Shown: positions 32,690 to 62,525 of the stretch, piece by piece
Layout: the number at the start of each line of letters is the position of its first letter
Numbering within the stretch: the stretch's first letter is position 1
Source of the DNA: an uncultured Chloroflexia bacterium
Lineage (GTDB): Bacteria; Chloroflexota; Limnocylindria; Limnocylindrales; CSP1-4
Assembly (NCBI GenBank): GCA_963736895.1
Contig: CAVTQU010000008.1
Span: forward strand, 436,535 to 500,534
Direction of reading: 5' to 3'
Length of the DNA stretch: 64,000 nt
The notes under the pieces: generated by a model
Told to the model about the DNA's origin: nothing
The model's input: the letters and a program-made list of their open reading frames with translations, nothing else
Database searches by the model: none
Program-made: the position numbers and the translations under genes

Positions 32690-34072
32690 CGGGCGACCGC
32701 CGTCTCTTCGTGTGCGAGCCACTTGCGCGCCTCGGCGAGGAGGCTCTCGCGGCTGTTCAGTGATGGTTCGGCGATGACCAAGCCGAGGAGGCGCTCGAGC
32801 AGCTCCCCGACCACCGGGCCCGGGGCGATGCCCAGCTCGCTCACCAGGTCGTCACCGTGAACGGCCAGCTCGCGCAGGCTCAGCGGTGAACCCGGCATCC
32901 AGTTCGGCCCTGACTCGCTTGTCGAGCTCCTCGATATGGCCGGCGTCCGGTGGCAGGCCACTGCCGATGTTGTCGGCGCGTCGAAGGTTGATCAGCCGAT
33001 CGACGCGGTCGCGGCCGATGCGCCGGATGAAACGCCGAACCGCGGCGCCGCTCCAGCGCGACTCGTAGCTGAACATGTGGTTGCGCGATGAGCGCGGCCA
33101 CTGTCTCGACGTCGCGTCGCGGAAAGGCGAGGCGCGTGAGCAGCGCTTCGGCCAGCTTGGCGCCCTCCTCGTCATGGCCGATGAAATGTCCGTCGGCGAA
33201 CGTCGGCGGCTTGCCGATGTCGTGCAGCAGGGCGGTGAGCCGCAGCAGCTCATCGTCCGGATCCACCGTGGCAGCACCGTCGAGCGTCGCCAGCGAGTGG
33301 CCCCACAGGTCGTGGCCGGTGATCTTGTCCTGCGGCACGCCGCGCTGTGCCGCGAGCTCGGGCAGGGCGTGGTCCAGCACGCCGGTCTCGGCGAGGATCG
33401 CAAAGGCCCGCGAGGGCGGATCGGCCCGGATCATCTTGCGCAGCTCGTCGCCGATTCGCTCGGCAGACACCCATTGCGCCGTCTCGGCCGTGGCCGCCAT
33501 CGCCGCCAGCGTCTCCGGCTCGATCTCGAAGCCCAGCTGAGCGGCCAGACGTGCTGCGCGCAGGAGGCGAAGCGCATCCTCGTCAAATCGAACCTGCGGC
33601 TCGCCGACAGCGCGTAGCAACGCCTGCCTGAAGGTCGGCCATCCCACCGGTCGGATCGACCCAGCGCGCCGTCCGCGTCCGCATCCGCGGCTCCGCGGCC
33701 CCAGGCGATCGCGTTGACCGTGAAATCGCGCCGCGCCAGGTCCTCCTCGAGCGAATCGGTGAACGTGACCGAATCAGGGCGCCGGTGATCGGCGTAGCGA
33801 TGGTCGCGGCGGAAGGTCGTGACCTCGGCGATCGGCGTCGACCGACCAATCGTGACCGTGCCGAAGCGGTTCTTGTACTGGCTCCCCGGGAAGAGGCTCA
33901 GCGTTCGCTCGGGCAGGGCGTCGGTGGCGATGTCCCAGTCCGTGACGGGGCGTCGCAAGAGCGAATCGCGCACGCCGCCGCCCACCAGGTACGCCGCGTG
34001 GCCGTTCGACCAGAGGGTCTGGAGGATGTCCTGCACGTCGGCCGGCACATCCGGGGGTGCCGACTGCTCCAT
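32686..34072 (-). CDS. cca: CCA tRNA nucleotidyltransferase with HD domain (frameshifted)
   Basis: YLVGGGVRD, DWDIAT, RRDFTVNA, EDALRLLRAAR, ERIGDEL, LLHDIGK; about three frameshifts. Confidence 0.9.
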
Positions 34073-34088
34073 GAAGCCGATGATCGGC

Positions 34089-34605
34089 CTAGTTACGCCC
34101 GATGAACAGGTAGTCGCGCCAGGGCTCGTTGCGCGGGTCGGCGAGATACGGGGTGAACAGCGTGTAGACGTCGCAGCGCGGCTCGAACGGGTCGCGCATG
34201 AGGCGCATCCGTGCCTCGTCAGCCAGGCGGCCGCCCTTGCGGTGGTTGCAGTGCTTGCACGCGGCAACGAGGTTGTCCCAGGTGTGCGCGCCGCCGCGAT
34301 GCCGCGGAATGATGTGGTCGAGCGTCAGGTCGTGCGTCTGGACGCCGCAGTACTGGCAGGTGTACTTGTCGCGCGCAAAGATCTCCTTGCGCGACAGCCT
34401 GACACGCGGACGTGGCCGCTTGATTCGGTGGTGGAGCCGGATCACGGACGGAGCGCGGAATATCTGCCGTCGCGGTCCGAACCTCGTGATGGTCGTACTG
34501 GATGACCTCTGCCTTCTCGCCGAAGACGAGGCGAAACGCGCGTCTTACGTTGCAGACGTTGAGTGGCTCGTAGTCAGAGTTGAGAAGAAGTACGACGCTG
34601 TCCAT
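34089..34605 (-). CDS. HNH endonuclease (McrA-like; frameshift near 34465)
   Basis: VLLLNSDYEPL, PSVIRL, CQYC, TLDHIIP, WDNLVAAC-x2-CNHRKG. Confidence 0.9.
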
Positions 34606-34702
34606 CGCTCCCTGAAGCCAGCCGGGACTCGACCGGGCGACGCTCGCATCGTAGCAAGAGAACGCGTGACCTGTTCACGCTGCCGATCTGAGCGCCGCGG
34701 AC

Positions 34703-35638
34703 TCAGATCAGGCGCTGACCGGTGGCGCTGTCCCAGCCGCCGGCCTGGCCTACTTTGCTGGCGAGCGGCTTGCCCAGCGCGTCGGCGATGAATCGAGCCG
34801 CCTCGAGCACGCCTGGCGAGGCGCGCGCCATGCTCGATTCCGAGCCCATCGAGCAGGTACACGAGATCCTCCGTCGCGAGATTTCCGGCCGCGCCGGGTG
34901 CGTACGGGCAGCCACCCGTGCCGCCGGTGGACGAGTCGAAGCAGGTGACGCCGTCCTCGAGCCCGGCTACCACGTTGGCCAGCGCAGTGCCCCGCGTGTC
35001 GTGGAAGTGGTAGGCGAGCTGATCGAGCGCAATTCCTGCCGCCGATCGTGGCCGCCGTCAGGTCATGGACCTGGCTGGGCACGCCGACGCCGATCGTGTC
35101 GCCGAGGCAGATCTCGTCGGCACCGAGGTCGACCAGCCGCTGGCTGACCTCGACCACCTTGTCGATCGCAACCGCGCCGGTGAAGGGGCAGCCGAACGCC
35201 GTGGAAACGTACGCGCGCTTCCACCAGCCAAGCTCGGTGGCGCGCATCAGGACCGGCGCGAAAAGCCTCGATTGACTCGTCGATCGTCATGCCGATGTTG
35301 CGGCGCGTGAACTCGTCGCTCGCGGCGGTGAACACGGCCAGCGCGTCCGCGCCAGCTGCCTCGGCGCGCTCCATGCCGCGCATGTTGGGGACGAGGACCG
35401 GGTAGCGAACGCCGTCGCGCGGCTGGTCGCGCAGAGCCGCCATCAGGTCGTCGGCGTCGGCGAGCTGCGGGATGGCGCTCGGTGACACGAAGCTCGTCGC
35501 CTCGATCTCGCGCAGCCCGGCGTCGCGGAGCAGCTCGATGTAGCGCAGCTTCGCCTCGGTCGAGATCGGCGTCGCTTCGTTCTGGAGGCCGTCGCGCGGC
35601 CCGACTTCGTAGATGCGGACGCGAGTTGGGTAATCCAT
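34703..35638 (-). CDS. liuE: Hydroxymethylglutaryl-CoA lyase (frameshifted)
   Basis: EVGPRDGLQNE, FGCPF, LGDTIG, GGCPYAPGAAGNLATEDL. Confidence 0.92.
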
Positions 35639-35676
35639 CGGCCATTCGAGTCTAGGCCGCGTCGCGCGATCGCGTT

Positions 35677-37715
35677 CTAGGTCAGTTCCACCAGCGTCTC
35701 GGTGCGCTGGACCTGCTGTCCGCGCTGGACCAGGACGCGCACGACACGGCCCGGCGCGGGCGCGGGAATCGTGTTTTCCATCTTCATCGCCTCGAGGACC
35801 ACCAGCACCTGGCCGGCCTCGACCGTGTCTCCCTCGGCCACTCGGACGTCAATCACGGTTCCGGGCATTGGCGCGGTCACGCTTTCACCGGCGGTGCCTT
35901 CGTGGGCTGCATGTCGCGCGGCCGACTTCGACGGTCGGCGCGGGAGCGAGCCGGGCAACGATCGACCGACCATCGAGATCCAGCACGACCGACCCATCCG
36001 ACCGCAGCGGCGACGGCTGCCGCCGGTGGCCTCGGCTGGACGCAGATCGACTGTCCGCTCCTCGTCGGCGATCTCGATTCGCAGGCGTGGTGGCGCGTTG
36101 AGCCGAAAGCCGACCCGCGGCCCGAGATCACGGGCTGCCTGGCTGGCGACCGCGGCGGCGCGGTCTGCCATGCATCGGCCGGCAGCGACTCGTCACCGTG
36201 CCAGCTGTCGTCGATCAGGCCCGTGTACATGTCCCCGGCGCGAACGTCAGATCGCGCGGTGAGCCAGCGCAGGAAGCCGCGGTTGGTGGTGACGCCCAGG
36301 ACGCTGGTGTCGTCCAGCGCGGTGCTCGAGCCGATCAAGTGACTCGGCACGATCAGCTCCGTGGGCGATCAGCTTGGCCAGCAGCGGGTCATATCTCGTT
36401 CCGACGACGTCGCCGCTGCCGATGCCGGCATCGACACGCAGACCGTCGATGCGTGGCCACTCGAGACCGATGATCTCGCCCGTTGCCGGAAGGAAGCCGG
36501 CATTCGGGTCCTCGGCGTACAGCCGTGCCTCGATTGCATGGCCATCAAATCGAATCGTGCTGGCTGGACGTCTCGAGTGGCTGCGCCGGACGCGATCGCG
36601 ATCTGGTCCGCCACCAGGTCGCGGCCGGTGACGAGCTCGGTCACCGGATGCTCCACCTGCAGGCGCGCGTTGACCTCCAGGAAGTAGAAGCTCCCGTCCG
36701 AGTCGAGCAGGAACTCGACGGTGCCGGCGCCGACGTAGCCGGAGGCACGGATCAAGGTCAGCGCCGCCTCGCCGAGACGTGCGCGCAGCGGCGCGTCGAC
36801 GACGAGCGAAGGCGCCTCTTCGATCACCTTCTGGTGGCGTCGCTGGAGCGAGCACTCACGCTCGCCGAGATGGATGGCGTTGCCGTGCGCGTCCGCGAGG
36901 ATCTGCACCTCGATGTGCCTCGGCCGCGGCGAGGTAGCGCTCCAGGATCAGCCGCTCGTCGCCGAATGAAGACTGTGCCTCGCGCCGTGCACGGGCGAGC
37001 GGTCTCGACCATCTCGGCAGGCTCGGCCACCACGTGCATGCCCTTGCCGCCACCGCCGGCGCTCGGCTTGACCAGCACCGGGAAACCGATTCGCTCGGCC
37101 TCGCCGGTGAGCGTCTCGATCGGACTGGTCGTCGCCGTCGTAGCCCGTCAGGACGGGACGCCGAGCCGCGCGGCCAGCTTGCGCGCAGCGGCCTTGTCGC
37201 CGACCGCACGCATCGCTTCTGGCGGTGGGCCGATCCAGACCAGGTTTGCGTCGATGACGGCCGCGGCGAACTCGGCGTTCTCGGCCAGGAAGCCGTAGCC
37301 GGGGTGGATCGCGTCGGCGCCGGACGCGCGCGCCGCGTCGAGGATGGCCGCACCATCGAGGTAGTTGCCGCGCAGAGGGCACGATCTCGTCGGTCGCGCC
37401 CGTCCACCAGGCGCGCGCCTGATCCTCTGCGACGAGCGCAAGAGAGCGGATGCCGAGCTGTCGGCAGGTTCGGGCAATGCGAACGACCAGCTCCCCGCGG
37501 TTGGCGACCAACAGGCGGCCGATCTTCCGCGGTGACGCTGAACTCGGACGCAGGTCCGCTGGCGGACAGGAGTCGGCGAGCGCGCTCGCGTCGACCTTGA
37601 CGCGTGATCCGACCTTGACCGACGGCAGCCGTCCCTCACGCAGCCACCGCTGCACCGTTCGAGTGCTGACTCCCAGCCGTCGGGCCGCCTCGCCCGGCCC
37701 AATCGCGTCGCTCAT
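35677..37715 (-). CDS. liuD: Methylcrotonyl/acyl-CoA carboxylase alpha subunit (BC-BCCP) with N-terminal Xis-like HTH (frameshifted downstream of the HTH-BC junction)
   Basis: [26 protein letters not shown]; [62 protein letters not shown] biotinylation site. Confidence 0.88.
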
Positions 37716-52686: not shown

Positions 52687-53364
52687 ATGAACACGCCGAG
52701 CCACCCGGTGCGCATCGGTGTCCTGGCGCTACAGGGCGCGTTCGCCGAGCACGTCGCCGTGCTGCGCCAGATCGGCGTCGAGCCCGTGCTCGTCCGACTC
52801 CCGTCCGACCTGGATGACGTCGCCGGCCTGATCCTGCCCGGCGGCGAGAGCACGACCATGCGCAAGCTCATCGATGAATGGGGGCTGCGTCAGCCGATCC
52901 TCGACCTGGCGAGCAAAGGCGCGCCCATCTTCGGCACGTGCGCAGGAATGATCCTGCTCAGCAGCGAGATCACCGACGGCGATGCGCCCGTCTTCCCGCT
53001 GCTCGACATCTCGGTGAAGCGCAACGCTTTCGGCCGCCAGCTCGAAAGCTTCGAATCGGAGCTGGACGTGCCCGTCCTGGGCGATCAGAAGGTCAAGGCG
53101 GTTTTCATCCGGGCGCCAATAGTCGAGCGCGTCGGACCAAGCGTCGACGTTATGGCACAACTGGAGGACGGACGCGTCGTGGCCGTCCGCAAGGGCCAGG
53201 TCATCGCCACGGCTTTCCACCCCGAACTGGCCGGAGAGACGCGTTTCCACCGTCTCGTGGCGACCATGGCAGCGGCGTATGCAGAGCCCGGTGAAGGGTC
53301 CGGACGGCGTCCGCATCCCATTCGTCGCACCTCCGTCGCGTCAACCAAGCGCGAGCCCGATTGA
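52687..53364 (+). CDS. pdxT: Pyridoxal 5'-phosphate synthase glutaminase subunit
   Basis: IGVLALQGAF, LPGGESTT, GTCAG, RNAFGRQ, FIRAP, FHPEL. Confidence 0.96.
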   Translation: MNTPSHPVRIGVLALQGAFAEHVAVLRQIGVEPVLVRLPSDLDDVAGLILPGGESTTMRKLIDEWGLRQPILDLASKGAPIFGTCAGMILLSSEITDGDAPVFPLLDISVKRNAFGRQLESFESELDVPVLGDQKVKAVFIRAPIVERVGPSVDVMAQLEDGRVVAVRKGQVIATAFHPELAGETRFHRLVATMAAAYAEPGEGSGRRPHPIRRTSVASTKREPD

Positions 53365-54480
53365 TCGAGCCACGCCGTTCTGTTGGTGCCCGTTCCGGAC
53401 GGGTGAGGCTTGCACGCCTGACCGACCTTGCAGCTGTCGGGGAACTCAGCCGGCTGTCGCACGCCGACCCTAAAGGCAAGGACTCGCCGATGCGCACGCT
53501 GGGCCTGCCCGTAACGGGCGGTCACATCGGTGTGTTCAGTCTCTTTCGCCTGCCCCTCGGGTCGTTCTGCCGCGACCGATCTGCTGTACGTCTACGAGGA
53601 GCGCGGCCGCCTCGCCGGGCTGGCACGCGTGGAGCGCGAAGGCATCCGCGACGAGTGGACGATCGTAGAGCTGGACGCGATCGACAATGGCACGGCCGGC
53701 GACATCCGTTTCCGTCTCGTCCAGCACATTCTGAGAGACGCCGGCAAGCGCGGAGCACTGCGCTTCCATGTCGCCTGTGCCGACAAGAGCGGTAACGTCG
53801 AGCTCTTCATGCAGGCGGGTTCGCACGCTACGGCGAGGAGAACATCCTCTACCGACCGCCCGAGGAGCCGCCTGTTCGGCTCACGTCGCCGAGAAGCGCA
53901 GCAGAGCGCGGCATCCGGCCCGCTGCGCCGCTCGACGCGCTACGAGCTCGACAAGCTCTACCGCTCGGCCACGCCGACGCCGGTCGCGCGGCTCGAGGAC
54001 TATCGCCAGCACCGACTGGGAGCGCCAGGGCAACGCACTGGCGCGTTCCACGCTCGTCGCTGACGCCGATCCTCCGCTTTGCCGACGTCGAGGCCTTTGT
54101 CCAGGAGTCGCCGGCGGGCCAGTCGGACGGCTGAGCCGTCTGGCGCCTTGTGTCAGATCGGCGTCGCGAAGGCGGATCAACCCGATTACATTCGCGTCAT
54201 CTGCGCGACCCGACCACGACTCCAAGTGAGCTCATCGCCTTCGGCCTGTCGGTCATCGCTGAGCGAAGCGTCGCGCTGGTCGGAGCTGATCGCGCGCTGG
54301 CAGCGCACTCGCCAGCCGGACGAGCGTGGCGTGTCAGCGCCGTGCGCACCTACGAGTCGCCGCTCGATCGGCGCTTCGAGGAGCATGGCTTCGTCAGCCA
54401 TCGCCACCGTCTCGCTGCTGATGAAGGAGGCTGCCGAGCGTGTAAGCGAAGCCAGCGTTCGTTCCGCTGTCCTGCGCTGA
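53361..54480 (+). CDS. GNAT-like hypothetical protein (multiple frameshifts)
   Basis: TTGA overlap with pdxT; VRLARLTDL, LAGLARV...W-x-IVEL, ELFMQAG, FEEHGF fragments in successive frames. Confidence 0.55.
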
Positions 54481-54512: not shown

Positions 54513-56589
54513 ATGACCGACATGACCGACGAGCAGCCACTGCCGAGCGGCATCCGCGACGATCTCGAGGCGCTGCTTGTCGCACTGCCGCCGGAGATCG
54601 CCGAGCGTATTCGCGCGATTCCCGCGGAACGCGACGTGATCGAGGTCGTCATGGACCTTGGCCGCCCGCCTGAGGCTCGCTTCGGTGGCGGCGGCGAGGA
54701 GGTCCTGCTCGAGCGCGAGGTGACCGAGGAGGACATCCAGTACGTCATCGACCACATCGGCTCGTTCGGCGAGGACAACCGCGCCGGCATCGAGCGCACG
54801 CTGCATCGCATCAGCGCCATCCGCAACCGCAGCGGCAAGATCGTTGGCCTCACCGCGCGCATCGGCCGCGCCGTGTTCGGCACGATCGAGATCATCAAGG
54901 ACCTGGTCGAGTCGGGGAAGAGCGTCCTGATCATGGGCCGGCCGGGTATCGGCAAGACGACGATGCTGCGCGAGGCCGCGCGCGTGCTGGCCGACGAGCT
55001 CGACAAGCGCGTCGTCGTGGTCGACACGTCCAACGAGATCGCCGGCGACGGCGACATCCCGCACCCGGGGATCGGCCGCGCGCGACGCATGCAGGTGCGC
55101 ACGCCGGCGCAGCAGCACGCGGTGATGATCGAGGCGGTCGAGAACCACATGCCCGAGGTCATCGTCATCGACGAGATCGGGACGGAGCTCGAGGCAGCCG
55201 CGGCACGCACGATCGCCGAGCGCGGCGTCCAGCTCATCGGCACGGCGCACGGCAACAACCTCGACAACCTGATGCTCAACCCGACGCTGTCCGACCTGAT
55301 CGGTGGCATCCAGAGCGTCACGCTCGGTGACGAGGAGGCGCGCCGCCGCCGGACGCAGAAGAGCGTCCTGGAGCGCAAGGCGCCGCCGACGTTCGACGTC
55401 GTGGTCGAGATCCAGTCGCGCGACCGCGTGACGGTCCATCCCGACGTCGCCGACACGGTCGACGCGATGCTGCGCGGCGATCCGATCGCGCCCGAGCAGC
55501 GCTGGCGCGACGAAGGTGGCGGTCCACCGCTCGCAGGCACGGCCGCGGCCCGGGCCACAGAGCGCAGATGCCAGGCGAGCGTTTTGGCGGTCTCGTCGGC
55601 ACCGGCACGAGCGGCTTCGGAGCCCGTCGGGCGAGCCGGGCTGGCGCACGTCGCCGACTCTTCGCACGGTTCGGGCTGCAGCACCGAGCGCGGCTACCGA
55701 CCCGGCTATCGGCCCGGGCGCGACCGGCGGTTGGCGGCGCGGTCGGGCAGGCCGCTCATCGGGCTCGGGCTCGAGGGTCGCGGCCGCGATTCATGGGAGG
55801 ATGATCAACAACCCCGGCGCGACAGCGTTCCAAGCCGGGGAGCTAGCCGATCGAGGGCCGCTCGAGCGCGGCACGCCGCTGCCCGGAGCCGCGCGCGCGC
55901 GACATGCGCGAGTTCGAGCGTCAGCGTGAGTGGCGCGACTCGGCGGCGCGCGCGATCAACCAGCTACGCGTGGCGGATGCGTTCGATGGCGAAGAGGGCA
56001 CCGATGACGAGGGCGATGCCTTCTCGACGAGGACTTCGACGCTGACGACGACGGAGCTCGCCGGCGAGCGCCGACCGACGCCATTGCCGTCGGTCGGCGA
56101 GCGATCTCGTCGCTGCCCGAACATGAACGTGCTGGGCTTCGGCGTCAGCCACAAGCGCCTCGAGCAGGCGGTTCGCGAGCTGCAGCTGCCGGTGACCCTG
56201 GTGCGCGAGCCGGACGAGGCGGACGTCGTCGATCACGCTGCGCAACTACTTCAAGCAGAAGGCGCCGGCGCTACGCGACGCTGAGGAACGCGGCCTGCCG
56301 ATCTTCGTGCTGAAGTCGAACACGCTTGATCCAGGTCGAGTCCGCCCTGACGTCGATCTTCGCGCTGGAGGTCGATCCGCGCGACGCCGCGCTGCGCGAG
56401 GTCGAAGAGGCGATCGGCCTGGTCCACGCGCAGTCACAGCCGGTCGAGCTGTCGCCGCAGAACGCATACATCCGCCGGCTGCAGCACCAGATGGCCGAGC
56501 AGGCCAACCTCGTGTCGCACTCGCGCGGCCGCGAGCCCTACCGCCGAGTTCGGCTCTATCCGGATACGCCGCGCGCCCAACGCGGCTAA
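54513..56589 (+). CDS. SpoIIIAA/Ycf45-like AAA ATPase with C-terminal R3H domain (3' half frameshifted)
   Basis: [47 protein letters not shown]; later [14 protein letters not shown] and [10 protein letters not shown]. Confidence 0.88.
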
Positions 56590-58234
56590 CGCCTAGAGGC
56601 CGAGGCCAGAGGCCCTGGCCGGCGATGAGCGACGGCCGGCGACGAGCACGACTGACGGCGCAGGTCACCGGGCAGACGCGTGCGACCGAGGTCGAGAGCG
56701 GCGGCGACTGCGCGGGGAAGCGCTCGACGAACTTGCGCGCGTAGACGAGCGCAAAGCCGATGCCGACGAGCACGAAGGCCATGCCCAGGCCGAACGCGAT
56801 CGGTCAGCACGATGCCCCAGGCCGGCCGGCCGATCGAGATCGAGCCGATCAGCACCAGCAGCGCCGACACGGACGGGATCATGCCGCCCGACAGACCGAG
56901 CGCGAAGAGGCCGCGCTTGCCGATGCCCTGCTGGGGACAGGTGGGTGTGGCCCATCCCGTCGTGCTCGTGCCAGCCTCGGCTGGCACGCGCTGCGTGAAT
57001 GGTCGTGCTCGTGCTCGTGCTCGACGCCATGCTCGTGGGCGGCGGCGTGGCTTCGTGCGGCTCGCCGGCTGAGCACATCGACGCCGCAACGCGCGTGACC
57101 AGCAGGTAGCGTGCCGATCACGACCACGATCGCGCCTGACACGACGCTCAGGATGGGATAGAGGCTTGCTCGGCCGGGATGACCACGGCCGCGGAGAGGC
57201 TGAGAGCGCCCAGGGCAAGTACGCCGATCGTGTGCGACACCGTCACCGTCAGACCCAGGCCAACCGCCTGGCGGGCGTTGCCGCGCGAGCCGACCAGGTA
57301 GGCGGCCATGACGGTCTTGCCGTGGCCGGGAGAAACGGCGTGAAGCGCGCCCGAGCCCGACCGCGACGAGCAGCGACAGAGCGATGATCGGCGGCGTCAG
57401 GTCTGCCGCCTGGAAGAGCGCCGTGACGTCGCTGCCGAGCTCGGTCACGCCCGCCGGGGAGGATGGCCGGGGCGGGGGCCGCCTCTGCCGGCGCCACCGG
57501 CTCATCGGCTGGTATCGCCAGCGGTGGTCGGCCGTCGAAGCCAATCGGCGTCGCGTCGGGAACGGAGAAGGGCGGGCAGTGTCGGGCCGCCCGGCGTTCG
57601 CGACGAAGCGTCGCCGCCGATTGGCCAAGCGGAATGGACAGCAGGTCGGCGGGATAGTGGGTGAGCCGGTCGGATGTGCGCCGTCGTCGGGAGCGTCGCT
57701 GTCCTGCAATCGTCGCTCCGTCGCCCTCGCACGACGATCTCGCGCCAGCCCTGTCGCTCGGCGTAGGAAACGGTCCTCGAACGAGAACGCGGCAGCGGCC
57801 GCCAGAGCGCGACGGTCGAGCGCTGCGCTGTAGACGCACACGAGGCGCATCGTCGGATTGCCCTGACCCATCGGGAAGCTGATGCCGCGCTGACGGTCGT
57901 CCAGCGGCAGCGGCGAGCCGCCGACCGTCAGGTCGAGATCTGGGTCGCCAACGCCGCGCACTCGCGCCGCGTCGAAGGCGGCCGCCTCGGAGTCGGAGAC
58001 GTCGCCGTCGGCGTCGGTGTCCATCTGGCGGCGCTCGCTGAAGGTGGGGATCTCGGCGAAGTCGGTGACGTGGTCGACGAGAACGGCGTCCGTCGCCACG
58101 CGCAGCCCGTTGTAGTGGTTGATCGTGAAGTTGCCGAGCGGGTGTGCGCTCGTCGCTGGGACGACGAGCGCCAGTGCCGCGAGGGCGAGGGCGAACGCAG
58201 CGCCAGGACTGACAGCCGGCGCGCAGCGGTTCAT
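56586..58234 (-). CDS. NicO/RcnA-family nickel/cobalt transporter with N-terminal extracytoplasmic domain (heavily frameshifted)
   Basis: AHPLGNFTINHY; GALHAVSPGHGKTVMAAYLVGSRG; His-rich HEHGVEHEHEHDH; GLSGGMIPS. Confidence 0.8.
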
Positions 58235-59605
58235 TGACCGAGCGCCTTCTCGCGCCGCCTGGACTGACGAGCGGCGAGAACGGAGGATGAAGAGCGAGCG
58301 CCTGCTGGAGGTGTGCGCGCCCTGGTCGGTCAGGCCGTTGGCGATCTCGATGAGTCCGGCGTGGATCAGCAGCTTGGCGTCGGGCGTGCCCAGGCCATCG
58401 CCTGGCTCATGGCGCCCAGCGCCTCGGCGTCGCGGCCGGCGGCGTGGAGCGCCCAGGCGTATGTGTCGTAGCCGTAGATGTCCTTGCGGTTTCGAGCTCC
58501 GTCTGGGCGAGCGTCAGCGCCCGTCAGCGTCGCCATCCGTGATCGGACAGGAACAGGCTGTACTCGCGGTCGTAGACGGCCGCTGCCGGTCGCTGTGCAG
58601 GCCACGCGATGAACTCGACCGTGTGCGTACTGCTCGTGCCGCCGGCTGATCGCCGGACAGCGCGTACAGGTCGCCCAGGAACGCCACGTAGTCCGGCCGC
58701 GGCACGGCGGCCACGGCCGCTCGTAGGAACGAGATCGCACCGGCGATGTCGCCACGGGCGTAGGCCACGCGACCTTCGCCGGCCAAGTGCCAGCGCGTAG
58801 CCGGGCAGCGCGGCCAGGGCGGCCGAGTAGCTCGGCCGGCCGCATCGAGATCGCCGGCCAGCAGCTCGAATTCGGCGGCGGCGTAGTCGTAGAAGGCGAG
58901 GTCGGCGGCCAGTTCGCCACGCGCGTCGGCCGCCTCGGCGGCCTGCGTGGCCAGAGAGCTGCGCCTGGCCGGATCGCCTTCGAGGAACGCGAGTCGCGCC
59001 GGCGCGGACGGTGATCGGCGGGCCAGTCGACGCGGCTGTCGAGCTTTGTCAGCGCGATCGTCGCGTTGTCGACAGGTCGCCCGAGCTCGAAGGCAGCTAT
59101 CGAAGACGATCGCCAAGCGCGGCGTTCGCGATGGATTCTGTTCGAGGACAGTCGTCGCGTCGCGCAGCGCTCGTTGAAGTCGTGGAGCGTCGAGCTGCGA
59201 TCCTCGCCAGGCCGAGTCGAGGCATGCGTGCTCAGCGGCGCGATGTCGAGCGCGCTGCTGGTAGGCAGTCGTGCGCCGAGGTGAAGTTGGCGAGGTCGCC
59301 GGTCTGGCGGCCCTTCGAGTCGAACAGCGTCGCCAGGTATGACCACGCGGTGTCCGAGCTGGGGTGTCTCGCGGAGCCGGTCCTGCCAGAAGGCGATGCG
59401 GCGATCGACGTCGCTGGTGTCGACGCCGGCGACGCGGAGCGATCGGGTCAGCCGGCGTGATATCGGTCAGCGGATCCGCAGCGGCCGCCGGAGCCGGCGC
59501 CGCGACGGCCGGGGCCGGCACGGTGGCGGACGCAGCATCACGGGGCCACAGCTGCACGGTCGCGACGATGAGGATGGCGACCAGCGGCAGCACGAGGTAG
59601 CGCAC
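58231..59605 (-). CDS. Membrane-anchored TPR protein (heavily frameshifted)
   Basis: N-terminal TM helix; fragments DLAFYDYAAAEFEL, PRPDYVAFLGD, DIYGYDTYAWALHAAGR; ATGA overlap with the transporter gene. Confidence 0.72.
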
Positions 59606-59705
59606 GCGGCTGAACCGCGCGGGAAGAGATCGGCGAAGCGTGCCCGGAGGGCCCGGGGATGCCGCTTCGGCGATCCCCGGACTTCCGAGTCAGCGCCTGA
59701 GGCAC

Positions 59706-60741
59706 TCAATTGTTCGCCGCTGCGAGGAACGGCCAGCTGTTCGAGAACGATGCTGTCGTTGTCCACGCAGTCGGTGGTGATGGCGCCATTGGTGACGAGG
59801 TCGAGCTCGGCATCGATGACGTCATCGGAGAGACGACGACCGTTGAGGAAGCCGTCCGTGTTGCCCGTCTTGTAGGTCAGGATGTCCGGGATCAGCACGC
59901 CGGCGAGGCCGTTGGGATCCGCCGCGCCGAGTGCCGTCAGGACGTCCTCGACGTGATAGCGGTAACCGCGGCCAACCTGCTTGATGGGATTGCGTCTCGT
60001 TGAACTTCTGGCGATCGGCCTGGTCGGTCTCCTCGTTGTTGAAGACCGTGTTGATCGCCGGCCGACCCATCTGGTCCAGCTGATGGCCAGTTCGAGTCGA
60101 CTGTCGTGGCCCACACGCCGATGCCCATGTCGTTGCCGCCCAGCGAGCTGTTCGGCACCCTCAGGACGATGGCGCTGATGTTCAGGCCAAGGAAGAAGTC
60201 GTGGGTATTGCTGTCGCAGAAGGTGCGGCCATTGCCGTTGCCCAGGACCTGCGCCCTTGAAGGCGTCGAGGTCGAAGAAGAACGGATCGTCGAACAGGCC
60301 GGCAGTGGTTCGCCACCGCCGCCGATCAATGTCGACTCGGTGCCGGTCCAGCCCGCCCGCCAACCAGGTGTCGTTGCGCCACAGGTCGTAGCTCTGGACG
60401 CCCATGTTGTTGGGCTTGCCGAACTTGTACATGTACCTGATGTCGGCCTTGTGGTCGCCGTCCGTGTCGACCTTGATCAGGTAGTCGATCTTCGAGCCGA
60501 ACGTGGTGGGCGAGTTGGGCAGCGCGCCCGCGCCGGGATTGACGCCGAGGATGAACACGGTCTGGTTCCCGCCGTTGCCGCTGAAGACGTACAGGTCGGT
60601 GATGTCCCCTCGGCCGTTCTCCGACACCTTTGGCGAATCAAGGTGATCGGCCGCGTTGGCAATCGGTGCCAGACCGAATGAAAGGATCAGTAGTGAGCTG
60701 GCCAGCGAAGCCGCGGCTGCTCGTGTGCGCTCAGTGCGCAT
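59706..60741 (-). CDS. Secreted DUF4331 family protein (frameshifted)
   Basis: Signal peptide, then AADHLDSP, DITDLYVF, DDPFFFDL, MGRPAINT, NGRRLSDDVID; GGAGG RBS before the ATG at 60741. Confidence 0.88.
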
Positions 60742-60766
60742 ATGGTGAGTACCTCCTCGGTGGTTG

Positions 60767-60796
60767 AAAAACGCGTGCCGCCGACGTGGCGCACGC
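60767..60796 (-). terminator. Terminator-like hairpin inside the DUF4331 5' leader
   Basis: GCGTGC-GCC-acgtc-GGC-G-GCACGC followed by GTTTTT, just upstream of the RBS. Confidence 0.35.
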
Positions 60797-60896
60797 CGCG
60801 GCGCCTTGTGGCGCGCCGGACCTTGGGCATGTCCGTCTTTCTGGGGCGCTCCTCCTCGATCTGGGCCGGTCCTCATTCCGGGTTGTCACTCCTCTG

Positions 60897-60922
60897 TACG
60901 CAGCCGATCGCGAAAGGGATCA
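60897..60922 (-). promoter_or_regulatory. ECF (SigK-type) promoter for DUF4331-TPR-NicO
   Basis: TGATCC (60922-60917), 16 bp, CGTA (60900-60897). Confidence 0.6.
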
Positions 60923-61023
60923 GTGGCCCGTCGCTCGCCCGTCGCTAGACTGAATCCATGCCCGTCCGTGACCTGGAGTTGCGTTTTCTTCATGCCCCGC
61001 AAGCAGAAACGCCGGCTTCGAAG

Positions 61024-61049
61024 TGAACCGGCGGGGGGTGTTGGGCGAA
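61024..61049 (+). promoter_or_regulatory. ECF (SigK-type) autoregulatory, probably leaderless promoter
   Basis: TGAACC (61024-61029), 16 bp, CGAA (61046-61049); GTG start 7 nt downstream. Confidence 0.6.
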
Positions 61050-61056
61050 TGAAGCA

Positions 61057-61653
61057 GTGAGCGGCCACGCAGGAGTGGCTGCTGACGGTGCTGCCCAGGT
61101 AGGCACGTCCGACGAGGCGCTTCTCGAGCGTCTCGCAGCGGGTGTCGATGAGGACGCGCTGTCCGAGCTGTATGACCGCTATCAGGGTTCGATGTACGGA
61201 TTGGCGATGCGCATAACGGGTGACGCACAGATGGCCCAGGACGCTGTCCAGGAGGCCTTCGTCGGCATTTGGCGCAACGCCGCCCGCTATTCGGGCAGCA
61301 AGGCGTCGGTGCGCACCTGGATGATGTCCATCGCCCACCATCGCGCGATCGATCTCGTCAGGCGTCGTCGACCAACCTCGCCGCTCCCCGAGACGGAGAC
61401 CCAGGCTGTGGGCGAGGCGTTCAGGTCACCAGACGTGTGGCCTGAGGTTGCGCGAGCCGCAGACGCGGAAGCAGTTCGGCGAGCCATGTCCACCCTGCCC
61501 GACGCGCAGCGCGAGACCATCGAGCTGGCGTATTTCGAGGGCCTGACGCAGGTCGAGATCGCGGAACGAACGAATGCGCCCCTGGGGACCATCAAGAGCC
61601 GCGTCCGCCTTGGCCTGACTCAGATGCGGCGCATCCTCGAGGACACGGCATGA
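61057..61653 (+). CDS. ECF sigma factor, SigK-like
   Basis: ALSELYDRY, AQDAVQEAFVGIWRNA, HHRAIDLVRR, YFEGLTQ, PLGTIKSRVRLGL. Confidence 0.9.
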   Translation: MSGHAGVAADGAAQVGTSDEALLERLAAGVDEDALSELYDRYQGSMYGLAMRITGDAQMAQDAVQEAFVGIWRNAARYSGSKASVRTWMMSIAHHRAIDLVRRRRPTSPLPETETQAVGEAFRSPDVWPEVARAADAEAVRRAMSTLPDAQRETIELAYFEGLTQVEIAERTNAPLGTIKSRVRLGLTQMRRILEDTA

Positions 61654-62525
61654 CCGAGCCTTCGCTGACGCCACCGGGCGGAATCACATGCGAAGAGGTC
61701 ACCGAGCTTGCCGGCCTCTTCGTGCTGGACGCGCTCCAGCCGGATGAGCGAGCCGCTGTGGTGGCTCACCTCGAGACATGTCCTGAGGCGCACGAAGAGG
61801 TGCGCGCAATGGGCGGAGTGGCGCCGGCGCTGGCCTCGCTCGCCCAACCGGTCGATGCTCCGCCCGAGTTGAAGTCGCGCGTGATGGCCGCCTATGCCGC
61901 CGACGCAGCGGCGGGTCAGCTCGCTGCGCAGGGTGCTGCTCCGACCACCGTTACACATCCTGCGAAGATGCCGGGCCGCTACTCCACTGGCGAACGGATG
62001 AAGCCCGTGCCCGCCGCGACGCCGGCGGTCCCGTCAAGGGCTGCCTGGCGGGTGCCAGCTTGGGCGGGGTGGACGGCGGCCATCGCCGCGGTTCTAGTCC
62101 TGGCGGTTGTCGGCGTCTGGGCTCTCGGCCTTCAATCGCAGATTAACGACGCCAACCAGCGCGCCGCATTGCTGTCCGACGCCATCGCGGCTTATTCAGC
62201 GCCGGACTCCCAGACGGCGGTGCTCGACGACCCGAACTCATCCGCGGCGGGCTTCGCCGCTGTGACGGCCGACGGGACGGCCTATGTCGTACTGAGCGAC
62301 CTTCCGCCTGCGCCGTCGGGAAGTACCTACCAGGGCTGGTACATCGTCGACAACGCGCCGGTTTCCGCCGGCTTGGTCACCGTTGGGCCGGACGGCCTGA
62401 TGCTCATGACTGACTCGCAACCGGCATCTGGGACCTCGGCAATCGCGTTCACCGTCGAGCCGAGCGGTGGCTCCGAACAGCCGACCAGCCAGCCATTCGT
62501 CGTCGGCGAGCTTCAATCGGCCTGA
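61650..62525 (+). CDS. Anti-sigma factor, RskA-like
   Basis: LFVLDAL...HLETC, TM helix, C-terminal YQGWYI, SAGL, TVEPSGGSEQPT. Confidence 0.88.
   Translation: MTEPSLTPPGGITCEEVTELAGLFVLDALQPDERAAVVAHLETCPEAHEEVRAMGGVAPALASLAQPVDAPPELKSRVMAAYAADAAAGQLAAQGAAPTTVTHPAKMPGRYSTGERMKPVPAATPAVPSRAAWRVPAWAGWTAAIAAVLVLAVVGVWALGLQSQINDANQRAALLSDAIAAYSAPDSQTAVLDDPNSSAAGFAAVTADGTAYVVLSDLPPAPSGSTYQGWYIVDNAPVSAGLVTVGPDGLMLMTDSQPASGTSAIAFTVEPSGGSEQPTSQPFVVGELQSA

Follow-up and report, generated by a model that had tools for sequence, protein, structure and literature searches.

The closest described counterparts of the genes studied here are the RcnA-RcnB system of Escherichia coli, the SigK-RskA pair of Mycobacterium tuberculosis, the anglerase-permeases, and the proteins that carry a classical amino-terminal Cu(II)/Ni(II) (ATCUN) site, NH2-X-X-His, of which Asp-Ala-His of serum albumin is an example. 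Of the SigK-type groups ECF18 and ECF19 of the extracytoplasmic function (ECF) sigma factors, one conserves a redox cysteine pair, C133/C183, in 94% of its members and the other in 56% (PMC7509140), and RskA-like anti-sigma factors are also known in the groups ECF214 and ECF290, the latter linked to metals (PMC7826278). In the anglerase-permeases, Ang-1 or Ang-2 domains are fused to HupE/UreJ-2 permeases, for which a role in uptake is proposed (Franco Cairo et al., Nat Commun 2025, PMC12537917; PDB 9GCE). The locus considered here lies in a stretch of 64,000 nucleotides, analysed as a whole and called the window below, from an uncultured Chloroflexia bacterium of the Limnocylindrales (contig CAVTQU010000008.1 of assembly GCA_963736895.1), whose genome comprises 3.02 Mb in 11 contigs with 66% G+C. 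It consists of genes for an ECF sigma factor and an RskA-type anti-sigma factor and, divergent from these, of genes for a secreted DUF4331 protein, a membrane-anchored tetratricopeptide repeat (TPR) protein and a NicO/RcnA-like fusion permease. We find that the five genes belong to a widespread bacterial gene set that probably handles copper or nickel outside the cell. A module of this kind, with a metal permease whose outer domain starts with histidine (His1 domain) under ECF control, is undescribed in the literature that we searched, in which DUF4331 is not mentioned either. On balance, we favour the view that the locus holds a conserved envelope module that is uncharacterised, is intact in the organism and works as proposed below.

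Like the anglerase-permeases, the permease of the window combines on one chain a signal peptide with a predicted cut directly before a conserved His, an outer domain that may likewise be a beta-sandwich, a flexible linker and a putative metal permease. Unlike theirs, its transmembrane domain is of the NicO/RcnA and not of the HupE/UreJ_2 kind, and the passages of PMC12537917 that were consulted list neither DUF4331 nor TPR proteins nor ECF control among the prevalent neighbours. Because the fold match to the anglerases is weak and the sequence match is confined to an EF-hand-like loop, we regard the relation as functional resemblance and not as membership. The permease shares with E. coli RcnA the core of six transmembrane helices, the H-x3-PGHGK motif and a cytoplasmic His-rich loop, and like RcnA with RcnB it is paired with a secreted accessory protein encoded alongside. 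It scores below the cut-off of the RcnA family, however, and RcnA itself lacks a His1 outer domain, RcnB and DUF4331 are not related, and the RcnA system is regulated by RcnR rather than by an ECF sigma factor. As in SigK-RskA, a sigma gene followed by an anti-sigma gene adjoins genes for secreted proteins, and the anti-sigma factor combines zf-HC2 with RskA_C, but the sigma factor of the window scores below the SigK cut-off and lacks the C133/C183 pair of the ECF18/19 clade, and the adjoining targets are the DUF4331, TPR and permease genes instead of mpt70/mpt83. The predicted mature DUF4331 protein resembles ATCUN proteins in starting with [A/S]-D-H, with an invariant His and no Pro at position 2. 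In contrast to serum albumin, the motif sits on a folded protein of 310 residues with no fold relative among solved structures, and the cleavage site that exposes it is a predicted one.

The DUF4331-TPR core and its permeases

Scanning one genome per species, we found 80 loci with a DUF4331 relative, which span Chloroflexota, Actinomycetota, Planctomycetota, Acidobacteriota, Myxococcota, Pseudomonadota, Bacteroidota, Eisenbacteria and Dormiibacterota. Profiles were built iteratively from the proteins of the genus and searched against all open reading frames (ORFs) of these loci, and neighbours were counted in the 46 loci with at least 3 kb of upstream and at least 5 kb of downstream sequence (full-flank loci). 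The specific TPR protein was encoded within 4 kb of DUF4331 in 40 of the 46, with E values of 1e-45 to 1e-145. The fusion of a His1 domain to NicO was present in 14/46 (11 of the 14 Chloroflexota loci, 3 of the 5 from Actinomycetota and none elsewhere), an adjoining sigma factor in 14/46 and an RskA-type anti-sigma factor in 11/46; for Chloroflexota, the last two figures were 9/14 and 8/14. The constant core is DUF4331 together with the TPR protein, and the five-gene form is an elaboration of Chloroflexota and Actinomycetota. The original prediction had treated DUF4331, the TPR protein and the transporter as one coupled unit, divergent from the sigma and anti-sigma genes, and proposed to look for co-occurrence of all five families. 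A unit of five families holds in the genus, where the gene order is syntenic in seven relatives, and in most Chloroflexota, but not in the DUF4331 family at large, where general co-occurrence was not found and only DUF4331 and the TPR protein go together.

In three planctomycete loci, a HupE_UreJ_2 permease (163 bits) begins at the TPR stop and carries a signal peptide ending in AYA followed by HKPSDSYL (L043, 5700-6854; L048, 12389-13543; L081, 12343-13470). Its outer domain gives a weak match to DUF6702, and its architecture is exactly that of the anglerase-permeases (PMC12537917). Two unrelated permease families, both with histidine as the first residue after the cut, thus occupy the same slot, which is the strongest comparative argument for the handling of a transition metal.

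DUF4331 is a very large family without an assigned function; it forms 2,768 clusters when grouped at 50% identity, and its close homologues number more than 5,000. The gene in the window (59709-60741, minus strand) encodes a short form of about 343 amino acids, which starts at 60741 with MRTERTR...IANA, followed by a predicted cut and ADHLDSP. A signal peptide was found in 117 of 150 representatives of 50%-identity clusters (median length, 29 residues), with A, G or S at position -1 in 115 of the 117 and an allowed residue at -3 in all of them. The predicted mature proteins have A or S at +1 in 116/117 and D at +2 in 114/117, followed by His at +3. An alignment of 101 diverse sequences contained seven invariant columns, one of which is His33, the third residue of the mature protein; D150, D155 and D286 are also among the invariant residues. 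The [A/S]-D-H end recurred in all 66 loci with a placeable start, from Winogradskyella to Limnocylindria. The processed end of DUF4331, with a predicted free N terminus, a residue other than Pro in the second position and His in the third, would have the form of an ATCUN site, and its binding of metal is putative. The structural model of the protein (pLDDT, 90.2; pTM, 0.87) consists of a beta-sandwich and a helical subdomain. No relatives were found among PDB structures by sequence, and a comparison of folds with solved structures gave none either (best E value, 0.01; TM score of at most 0.21).

Two variants of the family deserve mention. Four further cluster representatives begin with M-A/S-D-H and have no signal peptide, and signal-less calls starting with M-A/S-D-H-L-D include L068 9998 from Dormiibacterota and the proteins P0149, P0213 and P0236. 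Removal of the initiator Met would again free an X-D-H end in these forms, which are possibly cytoplasmic unless their starts have been mis-called. An apparent frameshift in the DUF4331 genes of Proteobacteria, Myxococcota and Bacteroidota turned out to be a pair of genes, the second with its own lipoprotein signal. This arrangement is found in L088 (9986-11262), L089, L091, L094, L099 and about 20 further loci of Bacteroidota, Pseudomonadota, Myxococcota and Eisenbacteria. A '...NVWA.T' block closes the N-terminal half, and the C-terminal half has its own lipoprotein signal, for example MKTIKYILGMAVIASLFLNC. The split points to two domains of DUF4331 that can be separated and probably come together again outside the cell.

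The permease gene (56593-58234, minus strand), placed by alignment to an intact orthologue, encodes a signal peptide, a His1 outer domain starting with HPLGNFTINHY, an RcnA/NicO-like domain of six transmembrane helices with the motif HAVSPGHGK, and a His-rich loop. The sequence A-x-A followed by HPLGNFTINHY was found in 118 of 120 homologues, and the -3/-1 rule places the cut between the two. His27, which becomes His1 of the mature protein, was invariant in 82 sequences, as were a pair of cysteines (C88 and C128) and D68 and E79 of an EF-hand-type loop with the pattern D68-x-D-x-D-G-x-V-x-x-x-E79. This loop of the outer domain reads DTDADGDVSDSE / DTDGDGQVSDAE (about 57990-58030 in the window, residues 68-79 of the orthologue); the planctomycete HupE-type proteins have a similar loop, DADQDGKITWGE, equally far from His1. 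The orthologue matches NicO (PF03824) with 35.7 bits, above the cut-off of 27.7, and its best NCBIfam match is the RcnA-type model NF007454, with 108.9 bits against a cut-off of 195. In the model (pLDDT, 84.3), a beta-rich outer domain is joined by a disordered linker to six long helices, and the His-rich loop follows the third helix, which would place it in the cytoplasm. No sequence relatives of the permease were found in the PDB. The best structural match of the model among 350,542 PDB chains was 9GCE, the Cu-bound Ang-1 (probability, 1.00), and the second was the Zn-binding periplasmic protein PA4063.

The TPR gene (58231-59605, minus strand) was located by frameshift-aware alignment to the TPR protein of the relative G014, and its start codon could be as far upstream as about 59707. 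The protein has one N-terminal membrane helix, and by the positive-inside rule its repeats lie outside; the orthologue matches TPR_19, TPR_2 and TPR_14 above their cut-offs (33.6, 32.3 and 30.7 bits). The TPR stop overlaps the permease start in an ATGA at 58231-58234. Two database entries that look like TPR-NicO fusions, P0370 (888 amino acids) and P0344 (379 amino acids), are products of frame errors at this junction and not true fusions, since they keep the internal signal peptide before HPLGNF and their TPR ends are garbled.

Proposed metal role and possible direction of transport

We propose that the RskA-type anti-sigma factor, as its family assignment indicates, holds the SigK-like sigma factor at the membrane and that the sigma factor, once freed, would read a promoter, ATCC-N16-CGTA, some 150 nt before DUF4331, from which the DUF4331, TPR and permease genes would be transcribed as a single coupled operon. 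DUF4331 would be secreted and cut to start with Ala-Asp-His, a pattern typical of ATCUN sites that may bind Cu(II) or Ni(II). The TPR protein, with its one-helix anchor and its repeats outside, could keep DUF4331 beside the permease, whose His1 outer domain, resembling Ang-1, would hand the metal between DUF4331 and the RcnA-like channel. That the locus has an extracytoplasmic role in metal handling had been suggested in the original prediction and is supported, though not proven, by the X-X-His end of DUF4331, the His1 of the permease, the substitution by HupE and the fold match to Ang-1, and we consider some transition-metal role likely. The assignment to nickel and cobalt made at the same time was over-specific, as the support for it is no better than for copper. 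The genome encodes urease, its only match of the NicO type is the permease of the window, and no [NiFe]-hydrogenase was found in it. Urease and the module occur together in 9 genomes of the genus, the module alone in 1, urease alone in 5 and neither in 4. Since urease, a nickel enzyme, is present in five genomes without the module, no conclusion about nickel can be drawn.

The direction of transport is less clear. The HupE/UreJ_2 family is regarded as a family of nickel importers, and the capture and import of copper or nickel is favoured by the HupE/UreJ substitution and by the 'fishing' outer domains; we put it forward tentatively, as somewhat more likely than export or loading. If the direction were the opposite, the RcnA-like permease would export nickel or cobalt (or copper) under envelope or metal stress, and the His1 domain and DUF4331 would take up the ion outside, either blocking its re-entry in a detoxification similar to that of RcnB for RcnA or loading DUF4331 as a metal-dependent client. 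The RcnA-like core, the cytoplasmic His-rich loop and ECF control all speak for this alternative: the best NCBIfam match of the transmembrane domain is to the Ni/Co efflux family of RcnA, the loop after three helices would be cytoplasmic as in RcnA, and control by an ECF sigma factor and its anti-sigma factor is typical of metal-stress efflux, as for CnrH, with RskA-like anti-sigma factors found also in the heavy-metal-linked ECF290 (PMC7826278). Against it, the RcnA match stays under the family cut-off, the slot is filled by a HupE/UreJ_2 protein in Planctomycetota, and most DUF4331-TPR pairs have no adjoining permease. We regard export or loading as rather unlikely.

Several observations weigh against the working that we propose for the module. 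The match to 9GCE is weak (E value, 4.5e-3; TM score, 0.42 on the target), and there is no significant sequence similarity between the NicO-fused outer domain and the HupE-fused one of Planctomycetota, with a direct comparison of the two recovering only the EF-hand-like loop (E value, 0.28). The transmembrane domain is closest to that of an exporter, RcnA, and stress or efflux, more typically than uptake, is under ECF control. The urease-bearing genomes without the module also belong here.

A bolder extension would make DUF4331 itself an extracytoplasmic copper or nickel metalloenzyme of a new fold, with its active centre on the Ala/Ser-Asp-His end. DUF4331-TPR would then be the ancestral target, across phyla, of an envelope-stress switch of the SigK-like ECF/RskA type, and His1 permeases of the NicO or HupE type would have been recruited to feed DUF4331. 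We consider this improbable; if it were true, ATCUN-type redox chemistry, such as the turnover of superoxide or peroxide, would be possible.

It is less probable still that DUF4331 and the TPR protein constitute a structural or assembly pair of the envelope that has nothing to do with transition metals, for example a Ca-binding surface protein and its chaperone, with the permease as a functionally unlinked, lineage-specific neighbour. The limitation of the permease to 14 of the 46 full-flank loci, the many invariant Asp residues of DUF4331 (D150, D155 and D286), which are potential Ca sites, and the absence of a fold relative among solved structures would fit such a pair. However, two unrelated His1 permease families share the exact position after the TPR gene, the permease start overlaps the TPR stop in the window, and the invariant His at mature position 3 would be hard to explain otherwise. 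Under the metal-handling reading that we prefer, the invariant X-X-His end, the constant TPR partner and the two interchangeable His-first permeases offer a concrete test of Cu or Ni binding at the N terminus of a family without an assigned function, and the findings extend the 'anglerase' idea from HupE/UreJ to permeases of the RcnA/NicO type.

The sigma factor, the anti-sigma factor and the promoter-like box

The sigma factor gene (61057-61653, plus strand; 198 amino acids; Pfam Sigma70_r2 and r4_2) and the anti-sigma factor gene (61650-62525, plus strand; 291 amino acids) are both intact and overlap by 4 nt. Among the ECF models of NCBIfam, the sigma factor matches SigK (NF007228) best, with 156.1 bits against a cut-off of 226, so that the name SigK given to it originally stands for a resemblance. 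The redox logic of M. tuberculosis SigK, cited in the original prediction, is not transferable because the protein contains no cysteine at all. The description of its partner as an RskA-like anti-sigma factor is borne out by RskA_C (77.5 bits; cut-off, 29.4) and zf-HC2 (32.5 bits; cut-off, 22.2), with RskA_N just under its cut-off (23 versus 27 bits) and the NCBIfam model NF052375 above it (146.5 bits; cut-off, 100). A cytoplasmic zf-HC2, one transmembrane helix and an outer RskA_C make up the layout of an RskA-type anti-sigma factor.

Upstream of DUF4331, (G)ATCC-N16/17-CGTA(A) was the single block common to all nine genus sequences. In the window it reads ATCCCTTTCGCGATCGGCTGCGTA (60897-60920, minus strand), lies 156-179 nt upstream of the DUF4331 start, and is the only copy of the strict box in the region between the sigma and DUF4331 genes. 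Across the family, 22 of 66 loci have ATCC-N15-18-CGTA no more than 260 nt before DUF4331, compared to 0.75 expected and to a maximum of 4 loci in 200 shuffles, and the loci that bear it include some from Planctomycetota, Myxococcota and Dormiibacterota without an adjoining sigma gene. We interpret the box as an ECF-type promoter-like element. Searches of the 150-nt leader of DUF4331 for an Rfam family, a riboswitch or a sigma-70 promoter gave no match.

From the adjacency of the genes and the ECF type of the box, we infer that the neighbouring sigma factor reads it. Two results count against this. In front of the sigma gene, another box is conserved, GTGAACC-N15/16 (GTGAACC-N16-CGAAT at 61010-61045 on the plus strand of the window), which lies 10-45 nt before the sigma start and whose -35-like half is common to five genus sequences. 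A joint DUF4331/sigma motif was not enriched before sigma genes either (3/23 versus 1.3 expected). Autoregulation through a shared promoter box was rejected on these two grounds. A genome-wide regulon search with the strict box gave 8 matches, compared to 10-15 in shuffled sequence.

Frame breaks in the assembly

The original prediction was right about the families, their order and their orientation, all of which are present, but it overlooked that none of the three minus-strand genes is a continuous frame in the window. The left border that it gave, 56586, marks where an out-of-frame ORF ends, and the actual stop of the permease lies at 56593-56595. We examined the breaks with a frameshift-aware protein-to-DNA aligner written for this analysis, using as queries the intact orthologues of G014 (locus L016), a short-read relative in which the module is fully intact, and surveyed about 75 kb around the locus with the proteins of two short-read relatives. 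The DUF4331 gene contains 6 frame changes (at 60348, 60310, 60252, 60083, 59989 and 59751), and once stitched it reads with 65% identity to the G014 orthologue and without an in-frame stop. The TPR gene contains 16 (53-55% identity to the G014 protein; 1-2 in-frame stops) and the permease gene 18-22 (70-73% identity to the orthologue; no in-frame stop), so that the three genes together have 40-44. The neighbouring gene for an R3H/SpoIIIAA-like ATPase has 13, with 87.5% identity and no in-frame stop. No frame changes were found in the sigma factor (67% identical to its G014 orthologue), anti-sigma, tmk and GGDEF genes. Because the reading frames are broken, the ORFs of the window match DUF4331 in Pfam only as fragments (PF14224, 72.8 bits over a cut-off of 27, with profile positions 2-85 and 356-395 in one frame; 144.9 bits for the intact orthologue), and no TPR or NicO match was found among them; the frame-broken DNA itself reaches 27.1 bits for NicO, against the cut-off of 27.7.

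The breaks lie in patches at 32.7-35.7 kb and 53.4-60.35 kb, with essentially none elsewhere in the surveyed region. The second patch comprises a looser set of 12 at 53364-54313 and a stretch of low-quality consensus at 55,518-60,348, where 53 single-base breaks fall within 4.8 kb and four genes on both strands, or about one indel per 90 nt. With one edge halfway through the R3H-ATPase gene and the other a third of the way into DUF4331, this dense stretch covers the 3' half of the former, the permease and TPR genes, and the 3' two-thirds of the latter. As its borders lie inside genes on both strands, it is independent of genes, operons and strands. One surplus base is the reading of 51 of 66 breaks, while bacterial pseudogenes show a deletion bias and lose bases rather than gain them. 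The G+C content is 0.70-0.72 in the dense stretch compared to 0.666 in the rest of the window. Substitutions relative to the orthologues are most frequent at the third codon position, followed by the first and the second, and the bias is as strong as in the intact neighbours (0.26/0.18/0.44 differences per site at the three positions in the permease gene and 0.27/0.18/0.49 in the sigma gene). The genome is scored as only 59% 'complete', while relatives with smaller and less contiguous genomes reach 90%. Several of the relatives are long-read metagenome-assembled genomes, and one of these (L032) also has the permease in pieces.

From the indel density, the surplus-base bias, the preserved signature of selection and the borders of the patches, we conclude that the breaks are very probably consensus errors of a long-read metagenome assembly and not decay, and the operon is almost certainly intact in the living organism. 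This conclusion rests on the pattern of the breaks, and two features of that pattern speak against it, namely, that the breaks are weakly associated with homopolymers and that surplus bases are commoner than missing ones, a profile unusual for nanopore data. That the breaks are real, with the operon and the R3H-ATPase gene decaying as pseudogenes or being recoded during reading, would agree with their limitation to patches and with the intact sigma/anti-sigma pair next to them, but we reject it as very unlikely, because neutral decay at one indel per 90 nt would have brought substitutions that erase the codon-position signal and is incompatible with 53-87% protein identity and a third-position bias, the surplus bases run opposite to the bias of pseudogenes, the patch crosses genes on both strands while others strike unrelated genes including urease, and the breaks showed no common sequence context by which recoding could be directed. 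The assembly thus contains patches of uncorrected single-base errors, in which gene calls, pseudogene calls and completeness estimates are not to be trusted, and the copy in the window is for this reason a poor exemplar of the module.

The patch at 32700-35700 has the same signature: three successive genes on the minus strand, otherwise 67-86% conserved, contain 4, 1 and 3 breaks. In the SpoIIIAA-like ATPase/PTPase-like/R3H gene (54513-56589, plus strand), the ATPase half (54614-55518) is intact and the 13 breaks fall in the linker and the R3H part, so that the listed ORF of 510 amino acids is a frame chimera. On another contig, the urease alpha gene (G000:C10:41197-41551, minus strand) is split between two frames into 354 and 153 amino acids, compared to 540-620 amino acids in relatives, which is probably another assembly error. 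In G014, an additional secreted protein of 456 amino acids with ELWKTDGT-type repeats (L016, 10158-11528, plus strand), absent from the window, is encoded between the permease and the R3H-ATPase gene.

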